From: an uncultured Alphaproteobacteria bacterium
Lineage (GTDB): Bacteria; Pseudomonadota; Alphaproteobacteria; RF32; CAG-239
Direction: 5' to 3'
DNA length: 64,000 nucleotides
Assembly: GCA_934271465.1 (NCBI GenBank)
Contig: CAKQRQ010000010.1
Span: 951 to 64,950, forward strand
Shown here one piece after another: positions 8,607-57,382 of this stretch (within the stretch, counting starts at the first letter, position 1; each line of letters opens with the position of its first letter). Both the position numbers and the translations under genes were made by a program. The notes beneath the pieces were generated by a model. It was not told the origin of the DNA, ran no database searches, and saw only the letters and a program-made list of their open reading frames with translations.

Positions 8607-8810
8607 AATAATAGAGCGTTTAAACGCTCCAGTCATTTCCAAGAGATTTCAAAAAATACACTTTTTAAGCGAACTGTCAACACATTGAAAAATAACGAAA
8701 AATTAAAATTATTGCTTTTTTAATAATTGGCTGATATACTTAAACCAATAGAGCGTTTAAACGTTGGTTTAAACGCTAGAGTCGGAGCGTCAACCACGGG
8801 GTTTTGTCTT

Positions 8811-10181
8811 ATGAAACAGCTTATTTTTATCCTTTTTACTTTTTGTGTTATTTCAAACACTTACGCATCTGACGAGTGTTTACATCGTCCAAGCTGTGAA
8901 GAATCAGGCTATACGCAGACTCGAAAAAAGTGCGCTTGTTTCAATAAAGACGTGCTCCCGTGTCCGTTTAATATTAATGATGATAACACAGTTTTCTGCG
9001 GAGATTTAGACTGCACGGATAAATGTAAAGATTTGCTTCCATTTTATGACGGACAAAGCAATACAAAAAAGATTATTGAACAGGCCGGCGAAAAAGGATT
9101 AGCTGCTTATGCGACAAATCTATTTTATGTTGGCAACAAGACAGGAGATTTCGGCCAAGGCAAATGGTATCTACCCTCTATCGGCGAATGGATGGATTTT
9201 ATCGGAACGGATATGTCTCAGGTTACACAACTTCTCTGGAGCAGCGGAAGTATCGGCGATAAAATGACACAGATTGAAGCCTCCCTTAAAACTTTAGCAA
9301 CCAAAGGAGCAGATGCTGAAATTTTAAGAGGAACGACATGGAAAGCTTATACAACATCATCACTATATGATAATGGTAAAAGTTGGATAATAGATTTGGC
9401 ACTTAAGTCAAGAAAAGTTGGCTATTTTCACCAACCAAGCGGCGGTGGGGGAAAAGTCCGTGCTGCTTTAATGATACGAAATTGTTTTAATCCGACAATC
9501 GGCGGAATTCCACCTAAAATCGGCGATGTAATGTATCAAGACAAAACCTATGGCGCTGTATCTGAGTATGACGGCAGCAAAACACCCGTCGGGGTTGTTG
9601 TCTCTGTTTCCGAAACCGGCCGCGATGTCATTATTCTGAATCTGAAAGATTTGACCTTCAATTCACAAACAGCGGTAAATAACTTTAATCCAGATAATCC
9701 CTACGGCGAAACGATTAACGTAATAGCTTGGGGGGTGCAAACTGTGGCATTAACATTCGGCACGGATGATTTTGTGACCGATTTGCAATCTTCCTGTAAC
9801 TGTAATTGCATGTTTTATGGAGAAGAAACAAACTGCCCCAAGGTTGACCATTGTGCGAAATATGATGGAAGTTGCTCCTGTTCAGAATGTGAAGAGGGAT
9901 ATTTGCTAGCGTATCAAGATGAAAAAATAGTCTGTTTCAAATATGACGGATGTTTCGGATGTCTGGTAGATGCCGGCGAAACCTATTACCGATATCAGGA
10001 TTATAAAACATTTAAAGAATGTTATGCGGTTTGCGGACCGCATTGCGAGCTGATGTCTTGCGGCGGCGTAACAGAATGTTATACTTGTGAAGGGGCTACC
10101 CAAAAAAAATGGATGGACTATGATAATTGCAGCATAGATTGTGAGAATTGCATCAAAACAAACGCTTGCTATTTTGAATAG
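8811..10181 (+). CDS. secreted Cys-rich modular protein with central DUF1566-like (GKWYLPSIGEW) domain
   Basis: Start chosen at MKQLIFILFTFCVISNTYA (signal peptide) rather than the ORF-track ATG at 8727. Has N-terminal Cys-rich repeats, a central domain, and a C-terminal Cys-rich NCPKVDHCAKYDGSCSCSEC module; paralog of 40073-42037. Confidence 0.7.
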   Translation: MKQLIFILFTFCVISNTYASDECLHRPSCEESGYTQTRKKCACFNKDVLPCPFNINDDNTVFCGDLDCTDKCKDLLPFYDGQSNTKKIIEQAGEKGLAAYATNLFYVGNKTGDFGQGKWYLPSIGEWMDFIGTDMSQVTQLLWSSGSIGDKMTQIEASLKTLATKGADAEILRGTTWKAYTTSSLYDNGKSWIIDLALKSRKVGYFHQPSGGGGKVRAALMIRNCFNPTIGGIPPKIGDVMYQDKTYGAVSEYDGSKTPVGVVVSVSETGRDVIILNLKDLTFNSQTAVNNFNPDNPYGETINVIAWGVQTVALTFGTDDFVTDLQSSCNCNCMFYGEETNCPKVDHCAKYDGSCSCSECEEGYLLAYQDEKIVCFKYDGCFGCLVDAGETYYRYQDYKTFKECYAVCGPHCELMSCGGVTECYTCEGATQKKWMDYDNCSIDCENCIKTNACYFE

Positions 10182-40072: not shown

Positions 40073-42037
40073 TTATTGCGCAATACAGCTCAGCCCATCA
40101 TCCGAAAGCTCATATTCAACACCATAGGTGGAACTGCTACACCACCTACAAGAGCAATCATCTTGATAAGATCCGCAATGTTCTATTATGGGGCAATCCG
40201 AACTATTTGAATAGTCAATAACACAACGAATATGTTTTTGTGCACTCTTCTTATTTAATTGAAAGCTTGCCGTCCCTCTCTGAATAGCGACAAAGTAGGT
40301 AGATGAGTTTTCTGTTGAAGTTGCAAGATCTCCTATATGAAAATCATTACCACCCAAAACAGTTTTTGATCCAAACTTTAATGCCGAAGCATCAAAAAGA
40401 CAGACCATGGGATGTCCTTGTCCAATCATCGATAGAACTTCTGCGGCCGCTGGCAAATACCACTTACCTTTATCGGAATCTGTGACGCCATATTTGCTGC
40501 AATATACGGCTGCCGAATTTTCTTCAGCTCCGGCTGCAATGATACAATCTGTATTGGCCTGACCGTCTGTTCTGCTGTTACATCCGGTCTCCGTATTCGC
40601 CAAATTTTCACTCCAAGGAAGAGTAACCTCATCTAAAGATAGAGCTAACAGACGACCTGTATTGACATTGCTAGCCCTAAAAATTATACCTATCGGCGTT
40701 CTGTCTGACGGGAAATTGTCAGGATCATAACAGTTGAAATCATCATAAAGCACCATTCCAGGAACACATTCATCAGCAGAATAAACACATTTATTATCCT
40801 TCAACGTAAATCCTCTGGCGCAAACAGCGCATTCTGTTTCAGAAGCACATTGTTTACAATAATCTACGTCGCACATATCAGCATAGGTATGGCAATAGTT
40901 TTCCCTACAGCTTCCTTCAAATAAATATCCATCAAAAGACCTATCGCAAGCTGTACATTTACAACCAACCCATTCACTATCGTATTCAGAACAATTAGAA
41001 TCCGCTTTATAACATATCTCTCGACACTCATTAGTTTCACTATCAAACAGATATTTTCTAAACCCATTCTTACTGGAACAATCCTCACAAGCACAGGTAT
41101 CTGCATTAAAGGCCTTACCCTCAGCCGCACAAGTCGCCGCAGTCAAAGAACACGAGCAATCATAATAACATTGTGTGACGCTCGCCTCTCCGGCATAACC
41201 CGATCCGATATAAAAGTCGTTGCTACTGCAAGAATAATTTTCCGGTTCCGCATCAAGATAATCAGAATTAACTTCCTGACAATTTCTATAGCACGTGACA
41301 CACTGGCCATTATACAAGCATTTATCCGCACCTTCACAACAATCCGCATCATAACAAGTTGTCTTCTCGGCATTACTTGGAGCTACTCCAATCCAATATT
41401 GTGGATCAACCGGACAATCGTTTGCGGTAGATTGAAGATTTTTTGCCGGACTTTGCGCTGCTCCGGCCGCGGCACAGCTTGGATAATAAGGCGTGCAAAC
41501 ACCATTATCATCAACTTCCGTCGCTTTGCAGCATTTTGAATTATAACAAATTTTCTTTTGGAGAGAAGCATTTCCGTCAATATAAATGACAACTGTTTCG
41601 CAACCCGTATCTTCATCTGAATATCCCGCACTATGGCAATCTTTATAAGGCTTCCGGCAATTCCCGTCAATCTTATAATACCCATCCGGACAGCAATGAA
41701 TATAACAAGTTGTTTCTTCCCCTTTGACATAGATTTTAACCGTGCCGCAGCCTTGAGAAGTCGTATAATAACCGGCATCTTCACAGCTGTCATAATTTGG
41801 ATAACACAACTCGTTGACTTCTATCTTTCCATCAGGGCAGCTGCCGCTTGCCCCGCCGCAAAAAAGCTTGGTTGTATCAAACGGGCATCTGACGATTTGT
41901 TTGCCGTCACATTCCTCAAGGGTATTGACATACCCCATCTCATCACAGGTGGGCTCCACCGACGGACAGTCTTGTGAAGAGGCCGGATTGGCAAGCAATA
42001 TAGCCATAAGTCCGAGAAGAAGATATTTCTTTTCCAT
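40073..42037 (-). CDS. secreted, extremely Cys-rich modular protein with DUF1566-like (GKWYLP) domain
   Basis: Signal peptide MEKKYLLLGLMAILLANPASS; dozens of Cys in repeated CxxxGY...GC modules; DUF1566-like core CSKYGVTDSDKGKWYLPAAAEV; C-terminal DCPIIEHCGSYQDDCSCRWC module homologous to the 8811-10181 C-terminus. Confidence 0.7.
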   Translation of the reverse strand: MEKKYLLLGLMAILLANPASSQDCPSVEPTCDEMGYVNTLEECDGKQIVRCPFDTTKLFCGGASGSCPDGKIEVNELCYPNYDSCEDAGYYTTSQGCGTVKIYVKGEETTCYIHCCPDGYYKIDGNCRKPYKDCHSAGYSDEDTGCETVVIYIDGNASLQKKICYNSKCCKATEVDDNGVCTPYYPSCAAAGAAQSPAKNLQSTANDCPVDPQYWIGVAPSNAEKTTCYDADCCEGADKCLYNGQCVTCYRNCQEVNSDYLDAEPENYSCSSNDFYIGSGYAGEASVTQCYYDCSCSLTAATCAAEGKAFNADTCACEDCSSKNGFRKYLFDSETNECREICYKADSNCSEYDSEWVGCKCTACDRSFDGYLFEGSCRENYCHTYADMCDVDYCKQCASETECAVCARGFTLKDNKCVYSADECVPGMVLYDDFNCYDPDNFPSDRTPIGIIFRASNVNTGRLLALSLDEVTLPWSENLANTETGCNSRTDGQANTDCIIAAGAEENSAAVYCSKYGVTDSDKGKWYLPAAAEVLSMIGQGHPMVCLFDASALKFGSKTVLGGNDFHIGDLATSTENSSTYFVAIQRGTASFQLNKKSAQKHIRCVIDYSNSSDCPIIEHCGSYQDDCSCRWCSSSTYGVEYELSDDGLSCIAQ

Positions 42038-43844: not shown

Positions 43845-45086
43845 ATGTTTTCACGTTATTTTACAAAAAGTTTGCTTTGCGCAACGGCTCTGAGCCTGCT
43901 TTCGGCGTGCGCCGTTGTCGATAAAAAAGACACTCCTGAGGAGTCCAACTGGTTTGTCCGTCTGTTTGAAAAAGACGGCCAAACCGACGCCGACCGCGCC
44001 ACTTTGGCTTATTCAAACGGTCTGTTTCAAAAGACTCTCGAATATTCGACCGAAGCCCTCAAGGCCAACCCGCGCAACCAGCAGGCTCTTTTGGTCGGCG
44101 CTTTGGCGGCGGAAAAGCTCGGCCGTTATAACAAAGCTCGCCAATATTACGAGGATTTGATCATTATCAACGGAACCGAGACCTCTATTTTGGGCTCTTC
44201 CGACGGCCAACCGCAAAAAATTTCGGAGATTGCCAAAAACAACTTGCGCGCCATTACCATTGCGCAGAGCAACTTGACCATTGAAAACCGCGACGGCACC
44301 AAGCATTTTGCCATTGCCGAAGACGCCGGCGCCCTTCAGAGCAAAGCGACTATCGCCCAAGCCCTGAGCAAAAAGGACATTCCGGCTGTTCGGTCTCAGC
44401 CCGTCGGGATTGATGACATTTTCTCCCCCGAGGAGCAAAATATCGTATCCAGATTCCTTATCTTAAAAGAACTGGCTGAAAAAGATTTTATTACCAAAGA
44501 CGAATTTTTATCCCGCCGCTCGGCCAACATCGGCGGATTGCTTCCGTTGACGCGCCAAGCGCCGGGGATTGGCATTGATCAGCCCGTTCCCTCGCCCGAT
44601 TTGATTATTGAGCGTCTGGAAATCTTAAAAGAAGGCGTTGAAAACCGCGCCATTACGCCGCGGGAATTTTCGGCCGAACGCGATGTGATTATCGAGGCTT
44701 TGATGTCGCCGGCTCCGCGCCAGCGGCTTAAAAACAAAGCCCCGTCCAAAAATATCTTAGATGCGGCCAAAGACCTCCGCAGATTGGAAGTTTTGTCCAA
44801 TCTTAACCTGATTACGGATTCTGAACACACCGCCGAAAAGAAAGCTGTTGAAAAATATTTGGGCATCGGCCGCGCACCGGCCAAACCTGCCGCAAAACCT
44901 GTTGCAAAGATTCAGCCCAAACCGGCGGAAAAAGAATGCAATCCGACGGAAAAAGTCAAACCAGAGGTTAAAGAAACTGTTGCCGCTGCTCCTGCAAAAA
45001 CAACAGTAACCATGACAGAAACTGTTTCTCCGGCGCCGGTTCAGCCTGTTCAGGCAGCCGCGCCAGACGTCACAAGCCCGTTCTAA
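43845..45086 (+). CDS. lipoprotein with TPR-like region and three SHOCT-like repeats
   Basis: Lipobox LLSAC; repeated motifs DFITKDEFLSRRSANIG, RAITPREFSAERDVIIE and LITDSEHTAEKKAVEKYLG; Pro/Ala/Lys-rich tail. Confidence 0.5.
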   Translation: MFSRYFTKSLLCATALSLLSACAVVDKKDTPEESNWFVRLFEKDGQTDADRATLAYSNGLFQKTLEYSTEALKANPRNQQALLVGALAAEKLGRYNKARQYYEDLIIINGTETSILGSSDGQPQKISEIAKNNLRAITIAQSNLTIENRDGTKHFAIAEDAGALQSKATIAQALSKKDIPAVRSQPVGIDDIFSPEEQNIVSRFLILKELAEKDFITKDEFLSRRSANIGGLLPLTRQAPGIGIDQPVPSPDLIIERLEILKEGVENRAITPREFSAERDVIIEALMSPAPRQRLKNKAPSKNILDAAKDLRRLEVLSNLNLITDSEHTAEKKAVEKYLGIGRAPAKPAAKPVAKIQPKPAEKECNPTEKVKPEVKETVAAAPAKTTVTMTETVSPAPVQPVQAAAPDVTSPF

Positions 45087-45117
45087 TCAGACACCAACGT
45101 TCAAAAAAAAGCGGTTT
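45087..45117. terminator. bidirectional rho-independent terminator
   Basis: aaaaaaaagcggtttctaaaccgcttttttt between convergent genes. Confidence 0.7.
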
Positions 45118-46131
45118 CTAAACCGCTTTTTTTGTATCTTGATTGGCAATTTCCTGCATTCTGAAAAGCTTAAGCCGCTCAATCTGCTGTTTCTTAACAT
45201 ATTTGAGATATCCCTCATAGCCGAACAGCACAAAGGCCGACAAAATCAACGGCAGTAGGTAATAGATAATGCGGTAAGCCAACAGCGCGCCAAACAGCAT
45301 CGCCCGATTATGGTCGCCGGGGATAATATACATAAACAGCCCCTCAAACACGCCCAATCCGCCGGGAACCTGACTGAACACGCCCAAAACCTGCGCAATG
45401 ATAAACACGCCCATAAAGGTCGAAAACGGAATATCGACAAAGGCAATCAGCGAGAAATAGAGCACCAGCGAGGCCATCAAAATATCCGCACCCCCGATAA
45501 TGACCTGAGCCAAAGCCATGGGCGGCCGCGGCATATCAAGCTCAACGCCTTTGATAATCAAAGGTTTGCGATACCAGATGCTCAAAGCAAAATACCCCAA
45601 AAGGCCGACTGCCGAAATCAGCGTGACTACCTCGGTTGTCAGTTTTGACACGGAACCGTCGCCAAAAGCGTGATTCGGCGTGATAAAATAGCCGATGATA
45701 ATCAGCAAAAAGCACGCGACCAAATAAGTAAAGCCCGAAAACGTAACCATGCGGACAATCTCGGTGCCTCTGAAACGCCATCTGGTATAGAGGCGATAGC
45801 GGATTGTGCCGCCGGAAACAATGGCATGACCGGCGTTGTTGCTGACCGAAAAGCCGATAAATCCGGCAAAAATCCATTTCCACGGCGCAAGCTTCCGCCC
45901 GATGTAGCGCAAGGCCAAATAATCATACGAGGACAACGCGACATAGCCCAAAAACGACGCCGCGCACGCCATCAACAGATTGTGCGGCGGGATAGACATC
46001 AAAGCATTTTTGATGTCCTCAAGGCTGTATTTTGAAAGCTGGCGATAGAGCATATACGCCGCCACGCCAAAGAAAAACAGCCCCGCCCAAGAGAGAGCCT
46101 TTTTGAGAATCTTTTTTGTCTGAACCGCCAT
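45118..46131 (-). CDS. UPF0104 / lysylphosphatidylglycerol-synthase-TM-like (flippase-like) membrane protein
   Basis: About 8 TM helices, start at MAVQTKKILKK; last gene of the minus-strand glycan operon. Confidence 0.55.
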   Translation of the reverse strand: MAVQTKKILKKALSWAGLFFFGVAAYMLYRQLSKYSLEDIKNALMSIPPHNLLMACAASFLGYVALSSYDYLALRYIGRKLAPWKWIFAGFIGFSVSNNAGHAIVSGGTIRYRLYTRWRFRGTEIVRMVTFSGFTYLVACFLLIIIGYFITPNHAFGDGSVSKLTTEVVTLISAVGLLGYFALSIWYRKPLIIKGVELDMPRPPMALAQVIIGGADILMASLVLYFSLIAFVDIPFSTFMGVFIIAQVLGVFSQVPGGLGVFEGLFMYIIPGDHNRAMLFGALLAYRIIYYLLPLILSAFVLFGYEGYLKYVKKQQIERLKLFRMQEIANQDTKKAV

Positions 46132-46256
46132 TTGATGCCTCTGTAAAAATAAATAAACCCAACTGTGACAAGTTATAATTTGAATATACATAACCGTCAA
46201 TATTTAAAATATAATTACCTTGGCAAAAATTTTTGGAAAGAAAAGAGTGTGGTAAA

Positions 46257-47204
46257 CTAAATTTTCTGCAAAAGTAATTTCTTATAATATTTAGGCAAAA
46301 AAACAAAACCATAACTTTTTGCCAAAAATTTACGCACCTTATAAAAAGGAATAGTTTTCAGAAGTTTTGCAATTTTTTCTATCCGACTTACAAGTTCTGG
46401 ATGACGATAAATACTCCCAGAATAAGTCATCGTGCAAATACCGTTATAGCGTTTTTTGTATTCATAATCACCGCCCAATAAATAAGCTTTTTTCTTATGA
46501 TTATTAATCCAGCTCTCAATAATATTATGATAAAGAACCATTCCGATAGAGTATTTAGAATACTCAAGGTCATAGGCAAAATTTTCAAAATAGACATTTT
46601 CTTTATTTGTCTCTGAATCAAAACCGATAGCTATAATTTTACTGCCAGTTTTCAATAAATATGCATTAGAAACGCCAAAATCTTTTAAATACAAATTAGG
46701 ATCATATGAAAAATCGTGAGATATTTTTTTCCAAGATAAATACAAATCAACAATATCTTGAGAAATCATTTCTTTCTCTATTTTTTCAAAACAAATATTT
46801 CCAACCTCTGTCAACAACTTTTTGGCATAATATCTGGCATGTTGTCTTTCTTTTCCCGAAAGTTGAGCATCAAATTCCTCAATAGTTTGAGGCAAATCAA
46901 TATGCCAATGCGGCGCCGCTTTAATAGTTGAAAAAGGAGTATAAGTATGCAAAATAGAAATTTCTAAAATATTAGAATTCGAAGAAAACACATAATTCGC
47001 AAACTCTAGCAAATTTTCTTTTCCTATATTTCTCAAATACAATCCAGCCAGACAAACATTGCCCTGCAAATGAATCGGAATCAATATTCCACTATCTAAC
47101 TCAACTAAATTATAATCTGTTCCAAATAGTAAATCAAATCTGTTATGTATAACATCAGGATCTATATTAAACAGCTTTGCTTTTAACAATTTCGCCATCA
47201 TCAA
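46257..47204 (-). CDS. putative FemAB/CelD-like (GNAT-fold) acyltransferase
   Basis: 315-aa AT-rich ORF; weak resemblance to Acetyltransf_6/FemAB family; C-terminal IPFYKVRKFLAK motif. Confidence 0.35.
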   Translation of the reverse strand: MMMAKLLKAKLFNIDPDVIHNRFDLLFGTDYNLVELDSGILIPIHLQGNVCLAGLYLRNIGKENLLEFANYVFSSNSNILEISILHTYTPFSTIKAAPHWHIDLPQTIEEFDAQLSGKERQHARYYAKKLLTEVGNICFEKIEKEMISQDIVDLYLSWKKISHDFSYDPNLYLKDFGVSNAYLLKTGSKIIAIGFDSETNKENVYFENFAYDLEYSKYSIGMVLYHNIIESWINNHKKKAYLLGGDYEYKKRYNGICTMTYSGSIYRHPELVSRIEKIAKLLKTIPFYKVRKFLAKSYGFVFLPKYYKKLLLQKI

Positions 47205-47229
47205 TCTCTAAATAATTAAATTTACAGTT

Positions 47230-48186
47230 CTAATATTTTAAAAATAGCTTAAATTTTTTTCTGATTTTCTTTATCGGAAAAAGACAAACAACAGGCCTTA
47301 AAATCAACTTAATAAACGACATAAATAGCAATTTATATTTAATCTTGTTCAAATCAATACATAAACTCTGCAATGCGCACAATAACTCTCTTTGCACTTT
47401 AAATACTTCCTCATCACTAATATCATAATTTTTAACAAGATTATTCAAATCCGCTTCACAAAATTCATAATTCGATAAATCTAAAGGTTCCTTTTGTTTA
47501 TTAAATACAGAATAGTAATCATAAAATTTATAGCGGCTAGTTGTTTCTTCTGAAATCCTAACCCACTGATTGGGAATACGTAAAGCATCACACGCTATTA
47601 GCGGATGCATCGCCGTAGAAATAACGGCTTTACACTCACACATATCATGCAAAAATTTGTCAACAGAAAGCGTAGCATCTAAAATTTTGGAATTTGGTAT
47701 ACGCCCCGTAATTTTGGAAAAAACTTTGCTATCTCTATCTGCATAATGAGGCACTATTCCTAATTCATATTTCTTTTCAATCTTATCAGAATCAATAAGG
47801 TAACTAACTAACAAACCACCATCACCTAAAACAGCTCCAGTCGAATGGCCTAACATTTTAGATATACGAGCCTCCGTTAATTTACCACGAAGAGCATAAC
47901 ACTTTACATTACGCCTTAATTTTTCTGGTAAAATAATATTAGGATTATGAAAAAATTTTCCCTCCTCAAAGCCTATACCCGTAGAAAATAACCAAATAGG
48001 GTTTTCTTTAAATATATGGTCTTTAGTATCCATTAAGAGCATATCGCCTAAAGAACCTATTCCCATAATCATCGCAAAATCCACAGGAGCAAATCTAATT
48101 TTAATTTTTGCTAATTTAGAAAAAATAATAGGATTCAAAGCATCTCCAAAATTAGGTATATCACAGTAAAAAAAAGGAATTTTCAT
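47230..48186 (-). CDS. polysaccharide pyruvyl transferase family protein
   Basis: N-terminal FFYCDIPNFGDALNPIIF is typical of PS_pyruv_trans (CsaB/WcaK-like); C-terminal FPIKKIRKKFK motif. Confidence 0.6.
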   Translation of the reverse strand: MKIPFFYCDIPNFGDALNPIIFSKLAKIKIRFAPVDFAMIMGIGSLGDMLLMDTKDHIFKENPIWLFSTGIGFEEGKFFHNPNIILPEKLRRNVKCYALRGKLTEARISKMLGHSTGAVLGDGGLLVSYLIDSDKIEKKYELGIVPHYADRDSKVFSKITGRIPNSKILDATLSVDKFLHDMCECKAVISTAMHPLIACDALRIPNQWVRISEETTSRYKFYDYYSVFNKQKEPLDLSNYEFCEADLNNLVKNYDISDEEVFKVQRELLCALQSLCIDLNKIKYKLLFMSFIKLILRPVVCLFPIKKIRKKFKLFLKY

Positions 48187-48224
48187 TATATTTTCTCCAA
48201 ATTTTATAAAAAAATAATTTGCTG

Positions 48225-48812
48225 TTATTTCAAATAATTTTTAAAAATATCCTCTCTAACCCACTCTCTTGGCAATTCATTCACTTGAGGATAACTCATA
48301 CAAGCCTCATCCAAATTGTCATAATTTAACTTATCTCTCCACCCAACTATTTTAGCAGGATTGCCTGCTACTATAGCATACTTGGGAATACTTTTAGTTA
48401 CAACACTACCTGCACCAACAATTACACCATCATCTATTTTTACTCCACCTAATATGATACATCTAACACCTATCCATACGTTTCGGCCAATTTCGACATG
48501 TCTCAATAAACCTATATGATCATAGGGAATGCGCGTAGAACTCTTATAATTATGACAGGTAGTGAGAATTAAAGAATCTTCTCCTAACTTCGAATATTCA
48601 CCTATTGAAATCCCCCCCTCAGCATACAATTTACATCCCCTTCCTATATACACATTACCACCAAGTTCAATGTTTTCAATAAACCGACATTCTGCTGTTG
48701 GTTCAATAACATTTTCCTTGTAAATTTTTGGCAAATGTTCTTTTTTGTATTCAATTTGTAGTTTTTTACGAATTTTCTTTAATGGTATTAAATTTATCAT
48801 CCATTTTTTCAT
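48225..48812 (-). CDS. hexapeptide-repeat (LbH) O-acetyltransferase
   Basis: Left-handed beta-helix repeats (NVYIGRGCKL, IGRNVWIGVRCIILGGVKIDDGVIVGAGSVV); N-terminal LIPLKKIRKKL motif. Confidence 0.75.
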   Translation of the reverse strand: MKKWMINLIPLKKIRKKLQIEYKKEHLPKIYKENVIEPTAECRFIENIELGGNVYIGRGCKLYAEGGISIGEYSKLGEDSLILTTCHNYKSSTRIPYDHIGLLRHVEIGRNVWIGVRCIILGGVKIDDGVIVGAGSVVTKSIPKYAIVAGNPAKIVGWRDKLNYDNLDEACMSYPQVNELPREWVREDIFKNYLK

Positions 48813-49555
48813 AATTTGCCTTTCAAATACCTTGTGATAGGAATGAGTCTAAATGCCTCAGCATAATTTACATTATTCGCCATACACCCCCTATAAATAT
48901 TCAATCCCAATATGCGTGGAATTAAATTATATTTTACCCATTGCGATTTATACAACTTTAGAGCTTGTTTTTTTACAGAGACAACCTGTGAGATATCTTC
49001 ATAATAATTTGGAGATTTAAGAGGAGACCAAACTTCATAAAAGCCTATAATTGTATCTTTATTATAGCCTTTTCTACGTATAATTTCTTTAGCAAGAACA
49101 TTTGTTATGTATTTATGTTCTATATGTTCATCATAAGGATTAGGCAAAAAAATATAATCATACCTTAATATATCTAACACAGCACAATAATCTTGAAACA
49201 TTTCGTTAATTTGATCAATAAAGGGAGGCTTTCCAAAAGTTTTAAATATCCACCTATTTTGAACCCCCAACATATCCATAACTTTGTTAAATTCCACAAT
49301 CCTAATATCAGCCCGTTCTTCAGCTTGAATATCTCCATAAGCAACCCCTGAGCTTGAAACACAACAAACATCAAAATTTTTAGTATATTTAATAAGCATT
49401 CCTCCCATCCCTAGCATTTCATCATCTGGATGAGGAGCAATCAAAAGACATCGTGTATCACTTTCTATGCTTAAATCAATGTGACGAAAATAATATTTTC
49501 GTAGTTTATGCCTTAATTTCTTATTAGGAATAAAATTTATTAACCACTTCCACAC
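48809..49555 (-). CDS. PIG-L/LmbE family N-acetylglucosaminyl deacetylase
   Basis: LLIAPHPDDEMLGMGG motif; N-terminal FIPNKKLRHKL motif. Confidence 0.75.
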   Translation of the reverse strand: MWKWLINFIPNKKLRHKLRKYYFRHIDLSIESDTRCLLIAPHPDDEMLGMGGMLIKYTKNFDVCCVSSSGVAYGDIQAEERADIRIVEFNKVMDMLGVQNRWIFKTFGKPPFIDQINEMFQDYCAVLDILRYDYIFLPNPYDEHIEHKYITNVLAKEIIRRKGYNKDTIIGFYEVWSPLKSPNYYEDISQVVSVKKQALKLYKSQWVKYNLIPRILGLNIYRGCMANNVNYAEAFRLIPITRYLKGKL

Positions 49556-49567
49556 AATACAAACCCC

Positions 49568-50527
49568 TCATCTTTTCACATTATATAAAGACTTGCGCAT
49601 TCTTTTTAATTTTTTGCGAAAAGTTTTTATCGGCATTAATTTTAAACAGAGCCACAAAAAAAACGACTTAAGATAAACAATGTTTGTCGGAAAAAAATAA
49701 TCTTTGTTATAAAAAGGTGAAGTTTCAATATATGAAAAATATTCTTTTGATATTTCAGTATATGCTCTATTCCATATTTTAGGATTCCTTCCAGCATAGT
49801 GAATAATTTTAGGATTAGCCTTTGCTTCCTGAAGCTCTGCATCAGAATACACATGTGAAAGCCAAGGATACTCAGGAGCTAAATTTATAGGGTAATCAAA
49901 TATATTCTCCAAAACACAATAATTAAAAGGTATTTCCAAAATCTTATCAACAGACAAATTCAAAACATCTAAGTCAAACATTTTTAATTCTGAGTTAAAA
50001 TCCTTTATAGTCTGAAAAAAACGCGAAAGCATATTTTTATTTCGCCATTGTTTAGCATTTATAAGCATAAAACCAGACATATAAATATACGGTTTGGAAT
50101 TTGACTTGAAATGCGTATGAACACCATTCTTTTCATCCTGCCGTTCAGCTACAACCCCTGCCCAATCATAATCAGATAAATCCATATTATATATCTCTGT
50201 CAAATCTCCACGAAATAAAACATCAACATCTGACCAAATTATTTTATCATATTCTTTAACAACATCCGCAATAAGCAATCTATAATAAACAGATATTGGC
50301 CAATTCTCTGAGATTGGTGCATTAGAAAAAAAATCACATACTTTAATCCATCTAATATATGGACATACGCACCCCATTTTGGAAATTGTCTTTTCACTCA
50401 AATTTCCATATAATACAATTATGTCATATTCTGTATCAAAGTTCCTATGTTTTAATAAAGATGAAATAGCAATACTTGCGGGAAGAGCATACCTATCATC
50501 AAAAGCAAAAACTATGGGTATTTTCAT
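49568..50527 (-). CDS. glycosyltransferase family 8
   Basis: IVFAFDDRYALPASIAISSLL, YYRLLIADV..., DVDVL (DxD); C-terminal MPIKTFRKKLK motif. Confidence 0.75.
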   Translation of the reverse strand: MKIPIVFAFDDRYALPASIAISSLLKHRNFDTEYDIIVLYGNLSEKTISKMGCVCPYIRWIKVCDFFSNAPISENWPISVYYRLLIADVVKEYDKIIWSDVDVLFRGDLTEIYNMDLSDYDWAGVVAERQDEKNGVHTHFKSNSKPYIYMSGFMLINAKQWRNKNMLSRFFQTIKDFNSELKMFDLDVLNLSVDKILEIPFNYCVLENIFDYPINLAPEYPWLSHVYSDAELQEAKANPKIIHYAGRNPKIWNRAYTEISKEYFSYIETSPFYNKDYFFPTNIVYLKSFFLWLCLKLMPIKTFRKKLKRMRKSLYNVKR

Positions 50528-51672
50528 TGTGAAAGAATCTCCTTAAAATTATTTAAACTTTCCATTTTCAACCGTTCAAACAATTGCATAAGAAATATTT
50601 GTTTTTTCTTATATCCTTGCTGATCAATTGTGATAGCTTCTTGCATACCTTTAGTTAAATCTTTTGAAATTATTGCATTTTCATTATCAAAACCATAAAA
50701 TGGTGCAAAATGTGGATGTATGACAGGAATCTTTCCAAATGCATATATAAGTTGAGCCGAACCAGTAACTCCGGTAGTAATGTAACGATTATGTTCAAAA
50801 TTTTCAGGATTTAACAACGGCAAATAAAAATCAGCTTCTTCCATATATCTAAACATCTCTGAAAAATTCAAACGTCCCGTTATTTCAATATATGAACGAA
50901 TTTCTTCTGGTAAATTTTCCAATTTACCTTTGCCAACGACAACAACCTTAAAATTTTGCTTTAACGCAACTAATTCTTTAATCGCCGAAATCAATTTCTG
51001 ATGATCTTTACGTTCTTGTTGTATTCCTCCAACACATATAAATACGGTCTTTTTTCCTTTTTGTGTTATATTAATACTTCCAAACAAAAGCGGAGAAGCA
51101 AACACTGTTTGAGGGAAATGTCCCAAAGTTATGAGATGTTTTTGTTTGCAGAAAGAACGTTCATTAAAACGGTTTATATCATTTAAATCATGTTCTACAA
51201 TAAACAATGAATGGTGCTTTCTCAACTGTGGATAATAATTTAATACGGACATATACATACCATTAACGCAATAAAAATAAGCAGCTGAGCTCATTAGAAT
51301 AATATGTTTATATTCATAAAATTTTCTAGATGCCAAAAAAAACTTCATCAATGAAAAATCGGACATAAAAACAAAAACATTTGAAATATCTAAACGACAA
51401 AATGGATTTTCTTTTACTATTATCGGATTTACAAGTATATCAACATTATATCCAATATCTTGAAAATATTTCAAATAACCGCCTATAACCTCCCCATGAG
51501 TATTATTTACTTCAACAAGTAATACACTATTTTTCCTCGTTTTCATCTTTAAAAATTTATACAAATTGCAAAAATCCTGTATATTTAAATGCATTAAATA
51601 ATTACGAAAATAGCGACGTTTATTTCTATTAAAAATAAGGAACGTTAACAACCTCGCAATAAACTTTTTCAT
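50524..51672 (-). CDS. glycosyltransferase family 1 (GT4-like)
   Basis: C-terminal GT-B nucleotide-binding motif (ICVGGIQQERK...EADFYLPL...TGVTGSAQLI). Confidence 0.65.
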   Translation of the reverse strand: MKKFIARLLTFLIFNRNKRRYFRNYLMHLNIQDFCNLYKFLKMKTRKNSVLLVEVNNTHGEVIGGYLKYFQDIGYNVDILVNPIIVKENPFCRLDISNVFVFMSDFSLMKFFLASRKFYEYKHIILMSSAAYFYCVNGMYMSVLNYYPQLRKHHSLFIVEHDLNDINRFNERSFCKQKHLITLGHFPQTVFASPLLFGSINITQKGKKTVFICVGGIQQERKDHQKLISAIKELVALKQNFKVVVVGKGKLENLPEEIRSYIEITGRLNFSEMFRYMEEADFYLPLLNPENFEHNRYITTGVTGSAQLIYAFGKIPVIHPHFAPFYGFDNENAIISKDLTKGMQEAITIDQQGYKKKQIFLMQLFERLKMESLNNFKEILSQ

Positions 51673-53024
51673 GCCTTCCCCCACTGTTCTAATATCCAAG
51701 AAGATGAATTCATTTTACTGCTTCCGCCAACTCCAAAAGCTAAATCCACATGGCATTCCTCACATACCGGATGTTCCGGTATATTATCTTTTCCCCTATC
51801 TCCACCATTTGCAAAGACCAAATGTATATTAGGATATTTAACTTTAGCTTTTCTTATTCCGTCACTTGCTGAGCCATCAGAATCATCAAATTCAATAACA
51901 TCCACAACGCCTTTAAGGTTTTCTAAAATCGATTTCCGTGTCTGTATTGAATAAAAATTTTTTCCTTTTTTTCGTTTTAACCATTCATCAGAATTAACTA
52001 AAACTATCACCCCATCTGAAGCGGACGAAGCGGCCTTTATCATTTCTATATGTCCCTCGTGAATAGGATCGAAGCCACCTGACACAATGTAATAAGTTAA
52101 CTTTGAATTGTTTTTTAATAAAAACAACTTTTTCAAAAAGTTAAGAATCGTTTGTTTAAAAATTCTTCTAGAACGTTTTCTAATTAGTCTGTCTGACAAT
52201 GATGTCTGTTGCAAAAGCCCCTTAACCTTCAAAAAATCTTTTGGATCCATTTTTTTGATATTCAAAAAATTTATTATACAAAAATCACTTAAAGCTCTTT
52301 TATCTTCCTCTAAACAAGCTTTTTTTCTCGCAAAATCCATAATCATTCTGAAAATAGAAATACTGTCCTGTATACGCTTAATTTCTTTTGCGGGATCTCG
52401 TGTTGTGCTATTCGGATTACAAACATAATTATATCCAGAACCATCTATAACTGAAAACTTATCAGAATAAAACAAAGCATTAATAACAAATAAATTATCT
52501 TCCCAATAAAGCCCTTCAGGAAAAATAATTTGATTATTTTTAATAAGGTCAATTTTATATATTTTATCCCAAACACCACCATGAGGCAAAACTTTAACTT
52601 TATCTGAAAATTTTGTTAAAATTTTATGCCCAAAGTGAGTCTGTTTAACACTCTTTCTCTCAACATATTTTGTATTTGTCATAACAATATCGGCATTTAC
52701 ATATTGAGCTTCAGTAAACAAATCCATCAAAAATTCAGCATCATAAAAGTCATCAGAATCTAAAAAACAAACATATTGACCAGAAACTAGCTTAAGTGCT
52801 CTATTACGAGCAGCAGCCTGACCTTGATTCTCCTGTGTCACAACCTTTATTCGAGAATCTTTTGCAGCATATCGATTCAAAATTTCAACACTGCCATCTG
52901 TCGACCCGTCATTAACAACAATCGCTTCCCAGTCTTGAAATGTCTGAGCCAAAACAGAATCCAGACATTTTGCAACATACTTTTCGCAATTATAACAAGG
53001 GATAATTACCGAAATCTTAGGCAT
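51669..53024 (-). CDS. family-2 glycosyltransferase fused to C-terminal cytidylyltransferase-like (HIGH-motif nucleotidyltransferase) domain
   Basis: N-terminal ISVIIPCYNCEKYVAKCLDSVLAQTF...FLDSDD GT2 motifs; C-terminal YYIVSGGFDPIHEGHIEMI nucleotidyltransferase motif. Confidence 0.75.
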   Translation of the reverse strand: MPKISVIIPCYNCEKYVAKCLDSVLAQTFQDWEAIVVNDGSTDGSVEILNRYAAKDSRIKVVTQENQGQAAARNRALKLVSGQYVCFLDSDDFYDAEFLMDLFTEAQYVNADIVMTNTKYVERKSVKQTHFGHKILTKFSDKVKVLPHGGVWDKIYKIDLIKNNQIIFPEGLYWEDNLFVINALFYSDKFSVIDGSGYNYVCNPNSTTRDPAKEIKRIQDSISIFRMIMDFARKKACLEEDKRALSDFCIINFLNIKKMDPKDFLKVKGLLQQTSLSDRLIRKRSRRIFKQTILNFLKKLFLLKNNSKLTYYIVSGGFDPIHEGHIEMIKAASSASDGVIVLVNSDEWLKRKKGKNFYSIQTRKSILENLKGVVDVIEFDDSDGSASDGIRKAKVKYPNIHLVFANGGDRGKDNIPEHPVCEECHVDLAFGVGGSSKMNSSSWILEQWGKA

Positions 53025-53889
53025 GATTCTGTCCCCCGTTCTTCAACTTAATTGTCATTTTGCTTGTCAACAGCGGGATTTTTTCAAACAAATAGACCTT
53101 TGTTCGGTTGCCCTGACGAGTAATCGTCAAAAACGGAATTATCCCAAACAGGTTTATCCTCGTTGTCCGCTTGGCTTTCAGCAAAAATTCTTCATACAGC
53201 GCCGGATTAGCCGCTCTCACAAATGCCCAAACCGCAAAGCCTGCATTCTTCATCTTTTCCGCCTGATGATGCGTCGTGTTGTTCTCATGATCCCGATAAT
53301 GAAACAACACTTCCGGCAAATTATGAAACTTCGTTACGCCTATCAGCCTGCTCCACAACGCATAATCTTCCGCCGGACTATACTCTTCCTCATACCTGAC
53401 ATTGTTCTTTGTTAGAACAGATTTCCGTATCATCGCCGCCGAATGTGATATTGCGCACACGCTCATCAGCGCCAGTTTAATCTCATGGTCATTTTCCAAA
53501 CATTCAGAATATGTTCCTCGTATCATATTCTTGATTTTGCAACTAACCACGCCGACTTCCGGATGTGCGTCCAGATACGCAACTTCTTTTTCCAAACGCT
53601 CCGGCAATGAGATATCGTCATGATCAAACACAGCCAAATACTCGCCCTTGGCCATATCTATCAATTTGTTTCGGCTCGGCGTTATTCCGAGATTATGCTC
53701 ATTTTTACTATATTTGATACGCGCATCATGATAAGACTTAACTATCTCCTCCCGATTATCTTCAGGACAATCGTCTAATATCAAAAACTCAAAGTCGCTA
53801 AAAGTCTGCGCCAAGATACTTTCTATCGCCTCGCGCAGATATGATTCCTTGGTTCTATACACCGGCATTAATACGGATACTTTAGGCAC
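53017..53889 (-). CDS. family-2 glycosyltransferase
   Basis: VSVLMPVYRTKESYLREAIESILAQTF...VFDHDD motifs. Likely GTG start at 53887-53889 with ggaggg RBS (the ORF-track ATG at 53958 overlaps the upstream gene). Confidence 0.75.
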   Translation of the reverse strand: MPKVSVLMPVYRTKESYLREAIESILAQTFSDFEFLILDDCPEDNREEIVKSYHDARIKYSKNEHNLGITPSRNKLIDMAKGEYLAVFDHDDISLPERLEKEVAYLDAHPEVGVVSCKIKNMIRGTYSECLENDHEIKLALMSVCAISHSAAMIRKSVLTKNNVRYEEEYSPAEDYALWSRLIGVTKFHNLPEVLFHYRDHENNTTHHQAEKMKNAGFAVWAFVRAANPALYEEFLLKAKRTTRINLFGIIPFLTITRQGNRTKVYLFEKIPLLTSKMTIKLKNGGQNHA

Positions 53890-54466
53890 GGACGCCCTCC
53901 TGAGTAATACTCTGATTTTTCTTGATATAGGCAAGGAGCGAGGTGTAGCCGCAGCCAAGTTCGGCCGCCAGCTGGCGTTTGCTCATGCCGGTTGACAGAC
54001 GCTGCTTAATCAGCTTGTCCTTATCCGCCAAAGATGCCATTTGATTATCGCCCTTAAACGGTCGACCGCGCTTTTTGCCTGATTTCAGCAAATTTTCTTG
54101 AATATTCTTGTTTTTGACTGACAAAACGGACTTATAAAGTTGCAAACAAATTTGAGCTGTCGTGTCAAAAGCCTGCGGCATCATGGTGTCAATTTGTAGA
54201 TTATTGCCGACGATATAAATTCGCACACCGCGCTGCGCCAACCGGCTGACCGACTGAATAACTTCTTCAAAACCGTTACCCAAAGCCCTCACATCTTCAA
54301 TCATAAAGACATCACCGGAATGCAGGCGCGATAAATTGGCCTCACTTAAAGCTTGAGCTTTGATAAACCGCTGAATGGTAAAATTGCAGGTGTGAGCATA
54401 CTCAAACAACAAACACTCTTGCTGCTTGCCCGATAGTCCCGTTTTATTTATAAATGCCGCTATCAT
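53882..54466 (-). CDS. small serine-recombinase (resolvase/invertase)-like protein, non-canonical active site
   Basis: 194 aa. Resolvase-like N-terminal domain (..GLSGKQQ.. aligned to RVSTxxQ; RLHSGDVFMIEDVRALGNG aligned to GDTLVVWKLDRLGRS; RLAQRGVRIYIV) and C-terminal HTH (MSKRQLAAELGCGYTSLLAYIKK). Two conserved catalytic Arg appear substituted. Confidence 0.55.
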   Translation of the reverse strand: MIAAFINKTGLSGKQQECLLFEYAHTCNFTIQRFIKAQALSEANLSRLHSGDVFMIEDVRALGNGFEEVIQSVSRLAQRGVRIYIVGNNLQIDTMMPQAFDTTAQICLQLYKSVLSVKNKNIQENLLKSGKKRGRPFKGDNQMASLADKDKLIKQRLSTGMSKRQLAAELGCGYTSLLAYIKKNQSITQEGVRA

Positions 54467-54513
54467 TCAGCCCAAACCTTTATCTTATAACACTTTACCA
54501 GCGGCGATTCGAT

Positions 54514-54658
54514 TCTTCATAAACCACCGTCTAGAATATATATCAGACCTTTTACACTATTAAAAAGAACAATGCAACCCAAAAGTTGGGTTTTCCTGTA
54601 TTTTTGCCATTTTACAAATTGTTGATTTTGTTTGTTCGCAAACGGTGGTTTATGAAGA
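54514..54658. promoter_or_regulatory. candidate invertible DNA segment flanked by 17-bp perfect inverted repeats
   Basis: tcttcataaaccaccgt (54514-54530) and its exact reverse complement acggtggtttatgaaga (54642-54658) flank 111 bp carrying TTGCAT-N17-TAAAAG-like promoter elements; it lies immediately upstream of the recombinase-like gene heading the glycan operon. Confidence 0.45.
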
Positions 54659-54733
54659 TTTGATGCAAACACGGCTGCTCGGCCGTTTTTTTGTAAAAAA
54701 AATCCGCCAAAGAAACACTCTTCCGGCGGAAAA

Positions 54734-54807
54734 TGGAGCAGGTAACGGGAATCGAACCCGCATATTAAGCTTGGGAAGCTCACATTCTACCATTGAATTA
54801 TACCTGC
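54734..54807 (-). tRNA. tRNA-Gly (anticodon CCC)
   Basis: Reverse complement GCAGGTATAATTCAATGGTAGAATGTGAGCTTCCCAAGCTTAATATGCGGGTTCGATTCCCGTTACCTGCTCCA; cloverleaf with anticodon loop TTCCCAA and terminal CCA. Confidence 0.85.
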
Positions 54808-54864
54808 AAGCTGTTGCCGAATTATTTACTCCAAATAAATTCACTTGGCAACAAAATATTTAAG

Positions 54865-56439
54865 TTATTCCTTCACTTTGGCAAATTTGACCTTAGGAAA
54901 GTCCTCCTGCGCCTTGTTCAAATGCCAAGCATTGCGCGCCAAAAAGACCAAAGCTCCGTCATTATCTTCGGCCAAATTCAAACGGTTGGCATCTGTAAAT
55001 TTCTTCATCTCCAGTTTATCTTCCGAGGACACCCACCGCGCGGTAAAATACTGAGTCGGTTCAAACATGACCGGCAGATTAAACTCATTTTTAATCCTGT
55101 CCGCCATAACCTCAAACTGCAAAACGCCTACAACGCCCACAATCCATTCCGCGCCGACCACCGGCTTAAACACGCTCGCGCCGCCCTCTTCGGCAATCTG
55201 TTTCAGCGCGTCGCCCAAATGCTTGGATTTCAAAGGATCCAGCGCCCGTGCCGATTTCAAAAGTTCCGGCGCAAAAGCCGGTATCCCTGTAAAGTTAATC
55301 TTTTCGCCCTCGGTCAAACTATCTCCGATTCTAAGTTGCCCGTGGTTGGGGATTCCGATAATATCCCCTGCAAACGCATCTTCCGCAAGCTCCCGCTCTT
55401 GAGCCAAAAACATAACCGGCGTCGGCACCTTAAGTCCCTTGCCCGTGCGCACCTGCGTCAAAGTCATTCCCCGTTTAAAATGCCCCGAACAAATCCGCAT
55501 AAAGGCAATCCTGTCACGATGTTTCGGATCCATATTTGCCTGAATCTTAAACACAAACCCCGTCACCTTGCCCTCATCGGGATTAACCATTCGTTCCACC
55601 GCCGGATGAGGTCTCGGAGTCGGCGCAAATCGGTGTAATCCTTCCAAAACCTCCCTCACGCCAAAATTATTGATGGCGCTTCCAAAAAAGACAGGAGTCA
55701 CAGTTCCGGCCAAATAGGCCTCCAAGTCAAACTTAGGGCACAATTCCTCAATCATCATCACATCTTCACGCAGTTTGGCCACCTGATGCGCCGGCAACAA
55801 CTCGTCCAACTTTGGATCATCCAACCCTGAACATGTCTCAATCACGCTGTTAACGGTTGACTTATCGCCGGTTTTGCTCATCAAAATCATGCGGTTGTTC
55901 AAAATATCATAACACCCTTTAAAGTCTTTACCTGATCCAACCGGCCAACTTGCCGGTGTCACATCCAAAGCCAACGTGCGTTCAATCTCGTCCAACAACG
56001 CAAACGGATCCTGCCCCTCTCGGTCAAGTTTGTTGATAAAGGTAATAATCGGCACATCTCTCAGCCGGCAAACCTCAAACAGTTTCTTGGTCTGAGCCTC
56101 AATACCTTTGGCCGAGTCCAAGACCATCACGGCCGAATCAACCGCCGTCAGCACACGATACGTATCTTCCGAAAAGTCCTCATGCCCCGGTGTATCCAAC
56201 AGGTTAAAAGTAATTCCGTCATAGTCAAAAGTCATCACGGACGAAGCCACCGAAATTCCGCGCTCCTGCTCCACTTTCATCCAGTCCGACCGCGCACGGC
56301 GGTTTTCGCCGCGGGCTTTAACGGCGCCAGCCTGCTGAATAGCCCCCCCGAACAACAGCAATTTTTCGGTCAAAGTTGTCTTACCGGCGTCAGGGTGGGA
56401 AATAATCGCAAAAGTTTTGCGCGGATTAACTTGTGTCAT
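54865..56439 (-). CDS. prfC: peptide chain release factor 3
   Basis: AIISHPDAGKTTLTEKLL GTPase G1, DTPGHEDF, NKLD; 524 aa. Confidence 0.9.
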   Translation of the reverse strand: MTQVNPRKTFAIISHPDAGKTTLTEKLLLFGGAIQQAGAVKARGENRRARSDWMKVEQERGISVASSVMTFDYDGITFNLLDTPGHEDFSEDTYRVLTAVDSAVMVLDSAKGIEAQTKKLFEVCRLRDVPIITFINKLDREGQDPFALLDEIERTLALDVTPASWPVGSGKDFKGCYDILNNRMILMSKTGDKSTVNSVIETCSGLDDPKLDELLPAHQVAKLREDVMMIEELCPKFDLEAYLAGTVTPVFFGSAINNFGVREVLEGLHRFAPTPRPHPAVERMVNPDEGKVTGFVFKIQANMDPKHRDRIAFMRICSGHFKRGMTLTQVRTGKGLKVPTPVMFLAQERELAEDAFAGDIIGIPNHGQLRIGDSLTEGEKINFTGIPAFAPELLKSARALDPLKSKHLGDALKQIAEEGGASVFKPVVGAEWIVGVVGVLQFEVMADRIKNEFNLPVMFEPTQYFTARWVSSEDKLEMKKFTDANRLNLAEDNDGALVFLARNAWHLNKAQEDFPKVKFAKVKE

Positions 56440-56554
56440 GATACAAACTCCTCTTAACCTGCGCTTTTACCCGAAAACAAAGCCCCTGTCAAGAGGCAAC
56501 AAAAAGCCCTCTCCTTTTATCAAAAGAGAGGGCTCATGAGCTCAAAATCAGACT

Positions 56555-57382
56555 TTATTTACCGATTTCGTTTCCTTTGGTGTCATATTTGACAACCTTG
56601 GCCTTGTCCTGCAAATTCTTAATTAAATCGCCCATAGATTTTTGCGCCAGCATAGCTTTAAGCTGGGGCTCAATCTGTTTCATAGGCTGCGGTTTGGCGG
56701 TGCGGATGTCCTCAACCAAAATGACGTGATACCCGAACTGTGTCTTGACCGGAGTCTTTGTATATTGGCCTTTTTTCAGCTTAAAAGCCGCATCGGCAAA
56801 TTCAGGCACCATCATATCTTTTGTGAAATACCCCAAATCAGCTGGTTCTTTGGAATATTCCTTAGCCAATTTCTCAAAATTGCCGTCTTTCTGGAATTTA
56901 GCAATAACTTCTTTAGCCTTGGCCTCGGAATTAACCAAAATATGTTTGGCCTTAATTTCCTGTTCGCCATGGAAAGTCTTTTTGTAATCTTCATACAACT
57001 TTTTGACAGCCGCGTCATTGACCTGAGCTCTGACCTGTTTGTCCAGATAAATCTTGCGAGCCAATTCCTCTTTCAGGCTTTTGAGCTGATTCTTATACTC
57101 GGGCGTTTCCTCAACCTTAGCTGCCTCAGCCGCCTGATAAACAATCTCGCCGTCAACAAAAATATCCAAAGTTTTCTCATAAAACTCATCAAACGAAGCC
57201 TTTTCCTTAACAGCCGGATTAGCTTCATAAGCAGTTTTGATGTCGGCAACCGTAATTTTTTTGCCGTTGACGACAGCCGCAACGCCGTCTTTTCCGGCAG
57301 CCAAAGACGTTCCCGACTGCAGCAAAGCCAAGCCGAAAGCCGCCAACAGCAAATATTTTTTGTTCATATCCTTTTCCTCCAC
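56555..57382 (-). CDS. parvulin-type peptidyl-prolyl isomerase (SurA/PpiC-like), periplasmic
   Basis: Signal peptide; C-terminal parvulin domain (AKHILV...FGYHVILVEDIR). Confidence 0.75.
   Translation of the reverse strand: MEEKDMNKKYLLLAAFGLALLQSGTSLAAGKDGVAAVVNGKKITVADIKTAYEANPAVKEKASFDEFYEKTLDIFVDGEIVYQAAEAAKVEETPEYKNQLKSLKEELARKIYLDKQVRAQVNDAAVKKLYEDYKKTFHGEQEIKAKHILVNSEAKAKEVIAKFQKDGNFEKLAKEYSKEPADLGYFTKDMMVPEFADAAFKLKKGQYTKTPVKTQFGYHVILVEDIRTAKPQPMKQIEPQLKAMLAQKSMGDLIKNLQDKAKVVKYDTKGNEIGK

Follow-up and report, generated by a model that had tools for sequence, protein, structure and literature searches.

The region spanning positions 54509-54663 of the analysed window, meaning the whole 64,000-nt stretch of DNA, is probably an inverton placed at the head of a surface-glycan operon, served by an Mpi-family invertase presumably encoded elsewhere in the genome and followed by a catalytically dead, putatively regulatory leader gene and by an exchangeable glycan cassette. 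The 111-bp segment between its repeats inverts in nature, as evidenced by natural variants, and is a real switch. Phase-variable surface glycans shape the encounters of gut bacteria with phages and with the immune system and, to our knowledge, are mechanistically understood almost only in Bacteroides. Here, an inversion switch is documented from sequence data alone in an uncultured gut alphaproteobacterium, with a Bacteroides-like logic consisting of an Mpi-family invertase, short repeats and exchangeable glycan cassettes. The switch itself is a well-supported conventional inverton, the new element being a pseudo-recombinase.

The inverted repeats and the two orientations of the segment

The switch lies within the intergenic region 54467-54733, between tRNA-Gly(ccc) and an ORF encoding a 194-aa protein. 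The features of the locus are the following:

45118-46200, minus strand: gene for a conserved LPG_synthase_TM-like membrane protein, 3' boundary of the cassette
46244-53880 (or 53881), minus strand: glycan cassette, 8 genes, 7.6 kb, about 30% GC against 41-50% in the flanks
53882-54466, minus strand: gene for the 194-aa Mpi-like paralog without catalytic residues (resolvase fold, E-helix, GRP arm, helix-turn-helix)
54467-54513, minus strand: fixed leader separating the first gene from the proximal repeat, containing most of the mini-ORF
54485-54520, minus strand: conserved 11-codon mini-ORF MKNRIAAGKVL, with its ATG inside the proximal arm
54514-54530: proximal inverted-repeat arm TCTTCATAAACCACCGT, gene-proximal, 17 bp, perfect, core TAAACCACCGT
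54531-54641: invertible segment, 111 bp; the window has orientation A, with the CTAG end facing the operon
54535-54563, minus strand: putative sigma-70-like promoter TTAATA-17 nt-TATATT, 9/12 consensus matches
54576-54592: internal palindrome aacccaaaagttgggtt / AACCCAAAAGTTGGGTT, inside the conserved block ACTTTWGGRTTG
54642-54658: distal inverted-repeat arm, exact reverse complement of TCTTCATAAACCACCGT
54671-54696, plus strand: intrinsic-terminator-like hairpin and T-run, immediately beyond the distal repeat
54695-54729, minus strand: tRNA-Gly terminator, hairpin CCGCC...GGCGG and T-run, by sequence reading
54734-54807, minus strand: tRNA-Gly(ccc), Rfam tRNA 68.4 bits, fixed upstream neighbour of the switch

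The initial annotation had described 17-bp perfect repeats around 111 bp and a small palindrome inside them, and both descriptions are correct in content and position. The arms in fact reach 22 nt at 91% complementarity (54509-54530 with 54642-54663). Within the whole 64-kb window no perfect inverted repeat with a spacer of up to 300 bp exceeds the 17-bp pair in length, and as the longest perfect pair obtained by chance in 200 block shuffles was 14 bp, this pair does not represent a chance feature. A search for additional copies, which had also been suggested, found no other exact occurrence of TCTTCATAAACCACCGT or of its 11-nt core in the 64-kb window. We propose that the proximal arm combines a recombination half-site and the crossover region. 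Inside the segment, the blocks AAAAATRYAGGAAAA and ACTTTWGGRTTG are conserved and have no promoter-like form. The stem of the palindrome at 54576-54592 is not conserved in paralogous switches, and its identification as a conserved terminator was rejected on this basis. An Rfam scan returned the tRNA only, apart from weak chance matches to miRNA-precursor-like hairpins.

Exact or near-exact copies of the 194-aa protein were found on contigs of independent human-gut metagenome assemblies, and the orientations of the segment were read off assembled contigs of different samples. One of these contigs (L001) matches the window at 100% identity across 6,585 nt, and the orientation of the window is present in L001 and L005 with identical flanks. 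In contigs L002, L003 and L004, which come from other samples, positions 54531-54641 are found as the exact reverse complement with 0 mismatches, and the flanks (117 nt on the upstream side of the repeats, 150 nt on the downstream side) also have 0 mismatches; the corresponding reverse-strand BLAST match covers 54514-54658 in all three (145 bp, 100%). The segment that the initial annotation had taken to be invertible is hence encountered both ways in independent assemblies, between identical flanks. Since the repeats are shorter than the k-mers given in the metaSPAdes and MEGAHIT contig names, reads must carry each of the junctions.

Three related switches were also found in both orientations, namely at the P0006 locus (L021 and L022 versus L023), at the P0007 locus (L025 and L027 versus L026) and at a type III restriction-modification locus (L033-L039 versus L040), and two further contigs (L041 and L042) terminate precisely at the repeat of the restriction-modification switch. 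A repeat core, AAAYCWCCGT, is common to the tRNA-Gly locus, to several glycan loci in which an Mpi-like invertase gene is adjacent to the switch, and to the restriction-modification locus; in two samples, two of the loci were present together. Where the arms are not identical (CATAAATC... versus CAAAAACC...), the mismatches outside CWCCGT remain with the flank upon inversion, which places the crossover inside the inner CWCCGT. Each site can be read as an imperfect dyad (TAAAC-CACC-GTTTG, TAAAC-CACC-GTCTA), as would be expected of a site for a serine invertase. The restriction-modification switch (L033 3589-3852, and also L034-L042) has a 146-bp segment with the same repeat core, situated between the invertase gene and an operon with N6_N4_Mtase and ResIII domains.

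The dead recombinase paralog and the candidate invertase

The 194-aa gene had been considered in the initial annotation to encode an invertase of the Hin/Gin/Mpi type. Its assignment to the small serine recombinase fold stands; the invertase role does not, as all six catalytic residues are substituted. Alignment of the catalytic positions against the intact Mpi-like invertase, Tn3 resolvase and Gin reveals that Y6, R8, S10, D36, R68 and R71 of Tn3 resolvase are replaced in the 194-aa protein by F5, N7, T9, Q32, A61 and N64. Across 19 clusters (87-100% identical) there is no variation at F5, N7, Q32 and N64 and almost none at T9 and A61, and in remote relatives the nucleophile and both arginine positions are replaced too. 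In Tn3 resolvase, mutating any of these six residues strongly lowers cleavage and recombination (PMC2794168).

The remaining sequence relationship is distant: the protein is 25% identical to the intact Mpi-like invertase over its full length, the helix-turn-helix being the closest stretch, and it scores 18.3 bits against the Pfam Resolvase model (cutoff 23.3) over residues 45-125 and 31.5 bits against the NCBIfam Mpi model NF009949 (cutoff 272; E = 1.3e-7) over residues 44-187 only. None of the curated Pfam or NCBIfam models was reached that would cover the 194-aa family. The structure predicted by AlphaFold has a pLDDT of 87 with a diverse alignment and of 54 with a shallow 19-sequence alignment, and the top Foldseek matches are Sin, Tn3 resolvase, gamma-delta resolvase and Gin, with a probability of 1.00. 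Also, pairwise comparison of the loci gives a median dN/dS of 0.12, denoting purifying selection, and together with the confident model of a resolvase fold this indicates that the gene is functional. The 194-aa gene leads every related glycan locus. On the basis of the loss of the six catalytic residues and the retention of the E-helix, the GRP arm and the helix-turn-helix, we classify the predicted protein as a pseudo-recombinase, which is catalytically dead and would bind DNA, probably as a dimer, with no chemistry. We found no description in the literature of a catalytically inactive serine recombinase paralog tied to invertons.

In most of the related loci a divergent 195-aa gene is found some 270 bp away from the dead gene, on the other side of the switch. 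The product of this gene (L006 2143-2727) scores 272.5 bits against the NF009949 equivalog cutoff of 272 and has intact YIRVST (MYYAYIRVSTDHQ) and ELSRLGRN motifs; the gene possesses a fixed promoter-like site of its own, TTGAGC-17 nt-TATAAT. A 95%-identical copy of the invertase is found directly upstream of the restriction-modification switch, where there is no dead paralog; as this switch inverts nonetheless, the paralog is not needed for inversion and is specific to the glycan loci. At the locus of the window, tRNA-Gly and prfC stand in the place occupied elsewhere by the invertase gene. A tblastn search found no competent recombinase in the 64-kb window, so that the enzyme acting on this copy would have to be encoded elsewhere; among the 120 homolog clusters listed, none comes from a contig of 370,068 bp, the length of that of P0001, and hence no Mpi-like gene was found among them on the contig that carries the locus of the window. 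The likely invertase, as judged for this copy from the related loci, would thus be an Mpi-family serine recombinase. The initial annotation had named a dead recombinase-like protein, with no other invertase acting here, as evidence that would speak against a switch: the protein is indeed dead, but a different invertase family evidently acts on such sites. Large serine recombinases with Resolvase, Recombinase and Zn_ribbon_recom domains (about 515-525 aa) were also noted (L012 1-1331 and L026 1089-2666); these and a Fic-domain gene occur within a few kb of some of the glycan loci with an adjacent Mpi gene, and their proximity suggests that those loci lie in or beside mobile elements.

The family of the dead paralog extends beyond these loci. 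An exhaustive HMMER search retrieved 33 representatives at E <= 1e-10, in a total of about 35 clusters; close relatives of the Mpi-like invertase, by comparison, fill over 7,900 clusters at E <= 1e-20, a large number of them 80-100% identical, so that its distribution is far wider than that of the dead derivative. All of the representatives examined are devoid of the RVS motif and of the SRLGR arginines and have in common the signature LSI(R/K)NKxIQxxLLxxGKxRGRP; among them no Pfam family other than an occasional HTH_7 was found, matches to the latter being present in members of the family. A protein 39% identical to the one in the window (P0140, on L043 of GCA_944391435.1) is encoded behind repeats AACGAACGTT / AACGTTCGTT, 98 nt apart, which extend in the contig as follows:

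L043 4818-4971: repeats TCAACGAACGTTTGA / CTAACGTTCGTTAGA, flanking 98 nt

We take these repeats to resemble the Bacteroides Mpi site. A more distant member (P0294, L044; 24% identical) heads a glycan operon comprising RgpF, GLF, GT8 and an epimerase, and no repeat-flanked switch was recognised at its locus (L044 1-1300, L046 1-330); upstream of the gene, L044 and L046 share no more than the final ~115 nt and are wholly divergent beyond. The family is thus linked to the leading position in glycan operons, and an inverton precedes it in many cases, though not in all. A scan of GTDB genomes with strict peptide patterns yielded one related locus (L010), and a scan of JGI metagenomes with the leader sequence also yielded one (L017). 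There was no related locus in viral contigs, and plasmids gave no DNA match and, at the protein level, only ordinary recombinases below 30% identity.

Putative promoter, orientation and the exchangeable cassette

The initial annotation had placed a promoter within the segment. In orientation A the TTAATA/TATATT site is the only sigma-70-like site of the region and it faces the operon, whereas in the inverted contig L002 it faces outward and no other site points toward the operon. This part of the proposal may hold for the window, where a 9/12 site is aimed at the operon, but it does not extend to the glycan switches with an adjacent Mpi gene, in whose segments no sigma-70-like site passes the scan in either orientation. 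In the restriction-modification switch the best site, TTGCAA-18 nt-TATAAT (10/12), fires toward the CTA/CTAG end, and the proximal repeat abuts the methylase gene and provides its GGAGG ribosome-binding site; transcripts of the restriction-modification operon must therefore start within or beyond the segment. From these consensus motifs, orientation A of the window would correspond to the ON state, and on this reading the tRNA-Gly locus would be ON in about two thirds of the assemblies, and the Mpi-adjacent and restriction-modification loci mostly OFF. The plus-strand terminator at 54671-54696 has no upstream gene on that strand to serve in the ORF list, and for this reason it fits with a promoter that fires outward in the OFF state. 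The fixed leader also contains a TGnTATAAG-like element (TGTTATAAG), which is destroyed in the P0007 loci and could act as an orientation-independent promoter.

The mini-ORF that begins inside the proximal arm may represent a leader peptide or the relic of an ancestral gene start. Its counterpart in L006 reads MNIRISVGKWL. The mini-ORF shows homology to the beginning of the L033 methylase gene, and in L026 it has a TTG start and extends to a TGA overlapping the ATG of the dead recombinase.

The position at the head of a glycan operon, put forward in the initial annotation, is borne out by the gene content downstream. The cassette encodes GT2, GT2 with a cytidylyltransferase, GT1-like, GT8 and PIG-L deacetylase proteins, together with hexapeptide acyltransferase, pyruvyl-transferase-like and GNAT-like proteins, and the downstream genes are separated by overlaps of 4-8 nt or gaps of 12-38 nt. 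The block of low GC content coincides exactly with the cassette that varies between strains. Indeed, L018 is 97-98% identical to the window over 53881-57000 and 44383-46243, and between these blocks has different glycan genes throughout (GT61 and others). Between the window and the loci with an adjacent Mpi gene the homology is restricted to 53881-54530 (86-89%), that is, to the proximal repeat, the leader and the dead gene, and among different glycan loci it begins exactly at the proximal arm. No tRNA-derived direct repeat or integrase was found flanking the cassette. Cassette exchange by recombination is probably anchored in the conserved head.

Proposed operation, alternatives and known systems

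In the mechanism that we favour, an Mpi-family invertase from elsewhere in the genome would recombine both arms, with crossover at the CWCCGT end of the repeat flipping the 111-bp promoter-bearing segment. In orientation A the promoter would read into the operon (ON), and in orientation B it would read outward into the plus-strand terminator (OFF), so that transcripts of the OFF state would be halted at 54671-54696 before running antisense into tRNA-Gly. The dead paralog, with its dimerisation helix and DNA-binding domain preserved, would be produced in the ON state alone, and most likely regulates the switch or the transcription of the operon. A more specific version, which we regard as possible but rather doubtful, has the paralog as an ON-only feedback regulator that blocks half-sites or heterodimerises with the invertase, thereby locking its own locus ON and freezing the others. 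If this were true, a single glycan would be expressed at a time by a pseudo-enzyme mechanism undescribed for any inverton, and the about 35 clusters would constitute a new family of regulators that derive from recombinases and act on surface-glycan operons. More generally, a paralog that modulates inversion or transcription would provide DNA switches with a new form of memory or mutual exclusion and would lend itself, as a compact component, to the design of synthetic recombinase circuits.

Two other explanations concern the identity of the enzyme and the nature of the repeats. That the adjacent 194-aa protein flips the segment itself, in the manner of a cis-encoded Hin/Gin-type invertase, would agree with its being a full-length homolog of small serine recombinases located next to the switch in every glycan locus; yet the family-wide substitution of the six catalytic residues, including the nucleophile, and the sub-threshold Pfam score leave this very improbable, the more so as the same core inverts at the restriction-modification locus with an intact invertase and without the dead paralog. 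Scarcely credible, to our view, is that the repeats delimit a miniature transposable element or IS remnant, or form a long hairpin acting as a terminator or small RNA, with no programmed inversion. Terminal inverted repeats of 17-22 bp around 111 bp of AT-rich DNA have the appearance of such an element, and the weak miRNA-precursor matches are those of a hairpin, although they merely reflect its length; however, neither the window nor the plasmid collection contains a further copy, and in related loci the repeat core goes together with a neighbouring invertase gene. Neither transposition nor a static hairpin can yield both orientations at one site with identical flanks, as observed in four locus types.

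A different question is whether the inverting segment carries the promoter at all, as it might instead contain an orientation-dependent terminator or operator, or a platform for binding of the dead paralog, with transcription starting in the leader or upstream. The failure to detect a sigma-70-like promoter in the Mpi-adjacent segments is in agreement with this, as are the conservation of AAAAATRYAGGAAAA and ACTTTWGGRTTG without promoter form, the presence of TGTTATAAG in the leader and the weak hairpin in the segment. Nevertheless, the leader element is gone from the P0007 loci and the hairpin stem is not conserved, the restriction-modification transcript has to start inside or beyond the segment, which has a 10/12 promoter within, and the outward terminator at 54671-54696 is sensible only if a promoter fires from the segment. 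We thus consider a promoterless segment unlikely, and retain the inversion of a promoter by an Mpi-family enzyme as the preferred explanation.

The closest parallel to this arrangement is found in Bacteroides fragilis, for which PMC4747536, with reference to Coyne et al. 2003, describes a single Mpi invertase that flips the promoters of seven capsular polysaccharide loci and six other regions. In both cases short inverted repeats surround a small segment, here with a putative promoter, ahead of long glycan operons; the small serine recombinase is of the Mpi family (here, in the related loci) and possibly encoded away from its target; one repeat core serves several operon types; and a gene with a regulatory role, presumed in the present case, comes first. 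The host differs, being an uncultured gut alphaproteobacterium and not a member of the Bacteroidales, and the invertase gene is adjacent and divergent in most of the related loci. The repeats differ as well: the Bacteroides Mpi consensus is ARACGTWCGT, whereas the core is here AAACCACCGT, AAAYCWCCGT.

Each capsule operon of Bacteroides begins with the regulators UpxY and UpxZ (PMC11685472). The loci under study resemble this organisation in having a conserved leader gene, transcribed, as we infer, only in the ON state and followed by highly variable glycan genes, but the leader is a dead recombinase paralog and there is no NusG-like gene; in contrast to UpxY, which is a NusG paralog, the 194-aa protein has a resolvase fold with a helix-turn-helix and is related to it neither in sequence nor in fold. 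By analogy with UpxY/UpxZ, the conserved head could support both the exchange of cassettes and a hypothetical cross-talk in trans between loci.

With the Hin, Gin, Cin and Pin systems the present switch has in common imperfect-dyad sites with crossover in the repeat, and the chemistry of small serine recombinases would be expected. In those systems an active invertase is encoded in or beside the segment and an enhancer bound by Fis is required (PMC3798978). Here, unlike in Hin and Gin, the adjacent gene is inactive, the segment has only 111 bp and no enhancer was identified.

As for the possible function of a recombinase without catalysis, the Tn3 and gamma-delta resolvases repress transcription by binding res. 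The 194-aa protein has kept the E-helix, the GRP arm and the HTH_7-type domain of these resolvases, but unlike these active enzymes its family is without catalysis and is found outside any transposon.

Two minor observations were made elsewhere in the window. A 13-bp pair at 8617/8751 was rejected as a further switch, corresponding instead to a repeated palindromic operator-like motif (within 8615-8790); the palindromic GAGCGTTTAAACGCTC recurs (8616-8631, about 8752-8765 and about 8767-8780) in the intergenic region that precedes the ORF at 8727-10181. On the minus strand, a 654-aa ORF at 40073-42037 has a signal-peptide-like N-terminus and is very cysteine-rich and repetitive, with many CxxC and C-x-C motifs.
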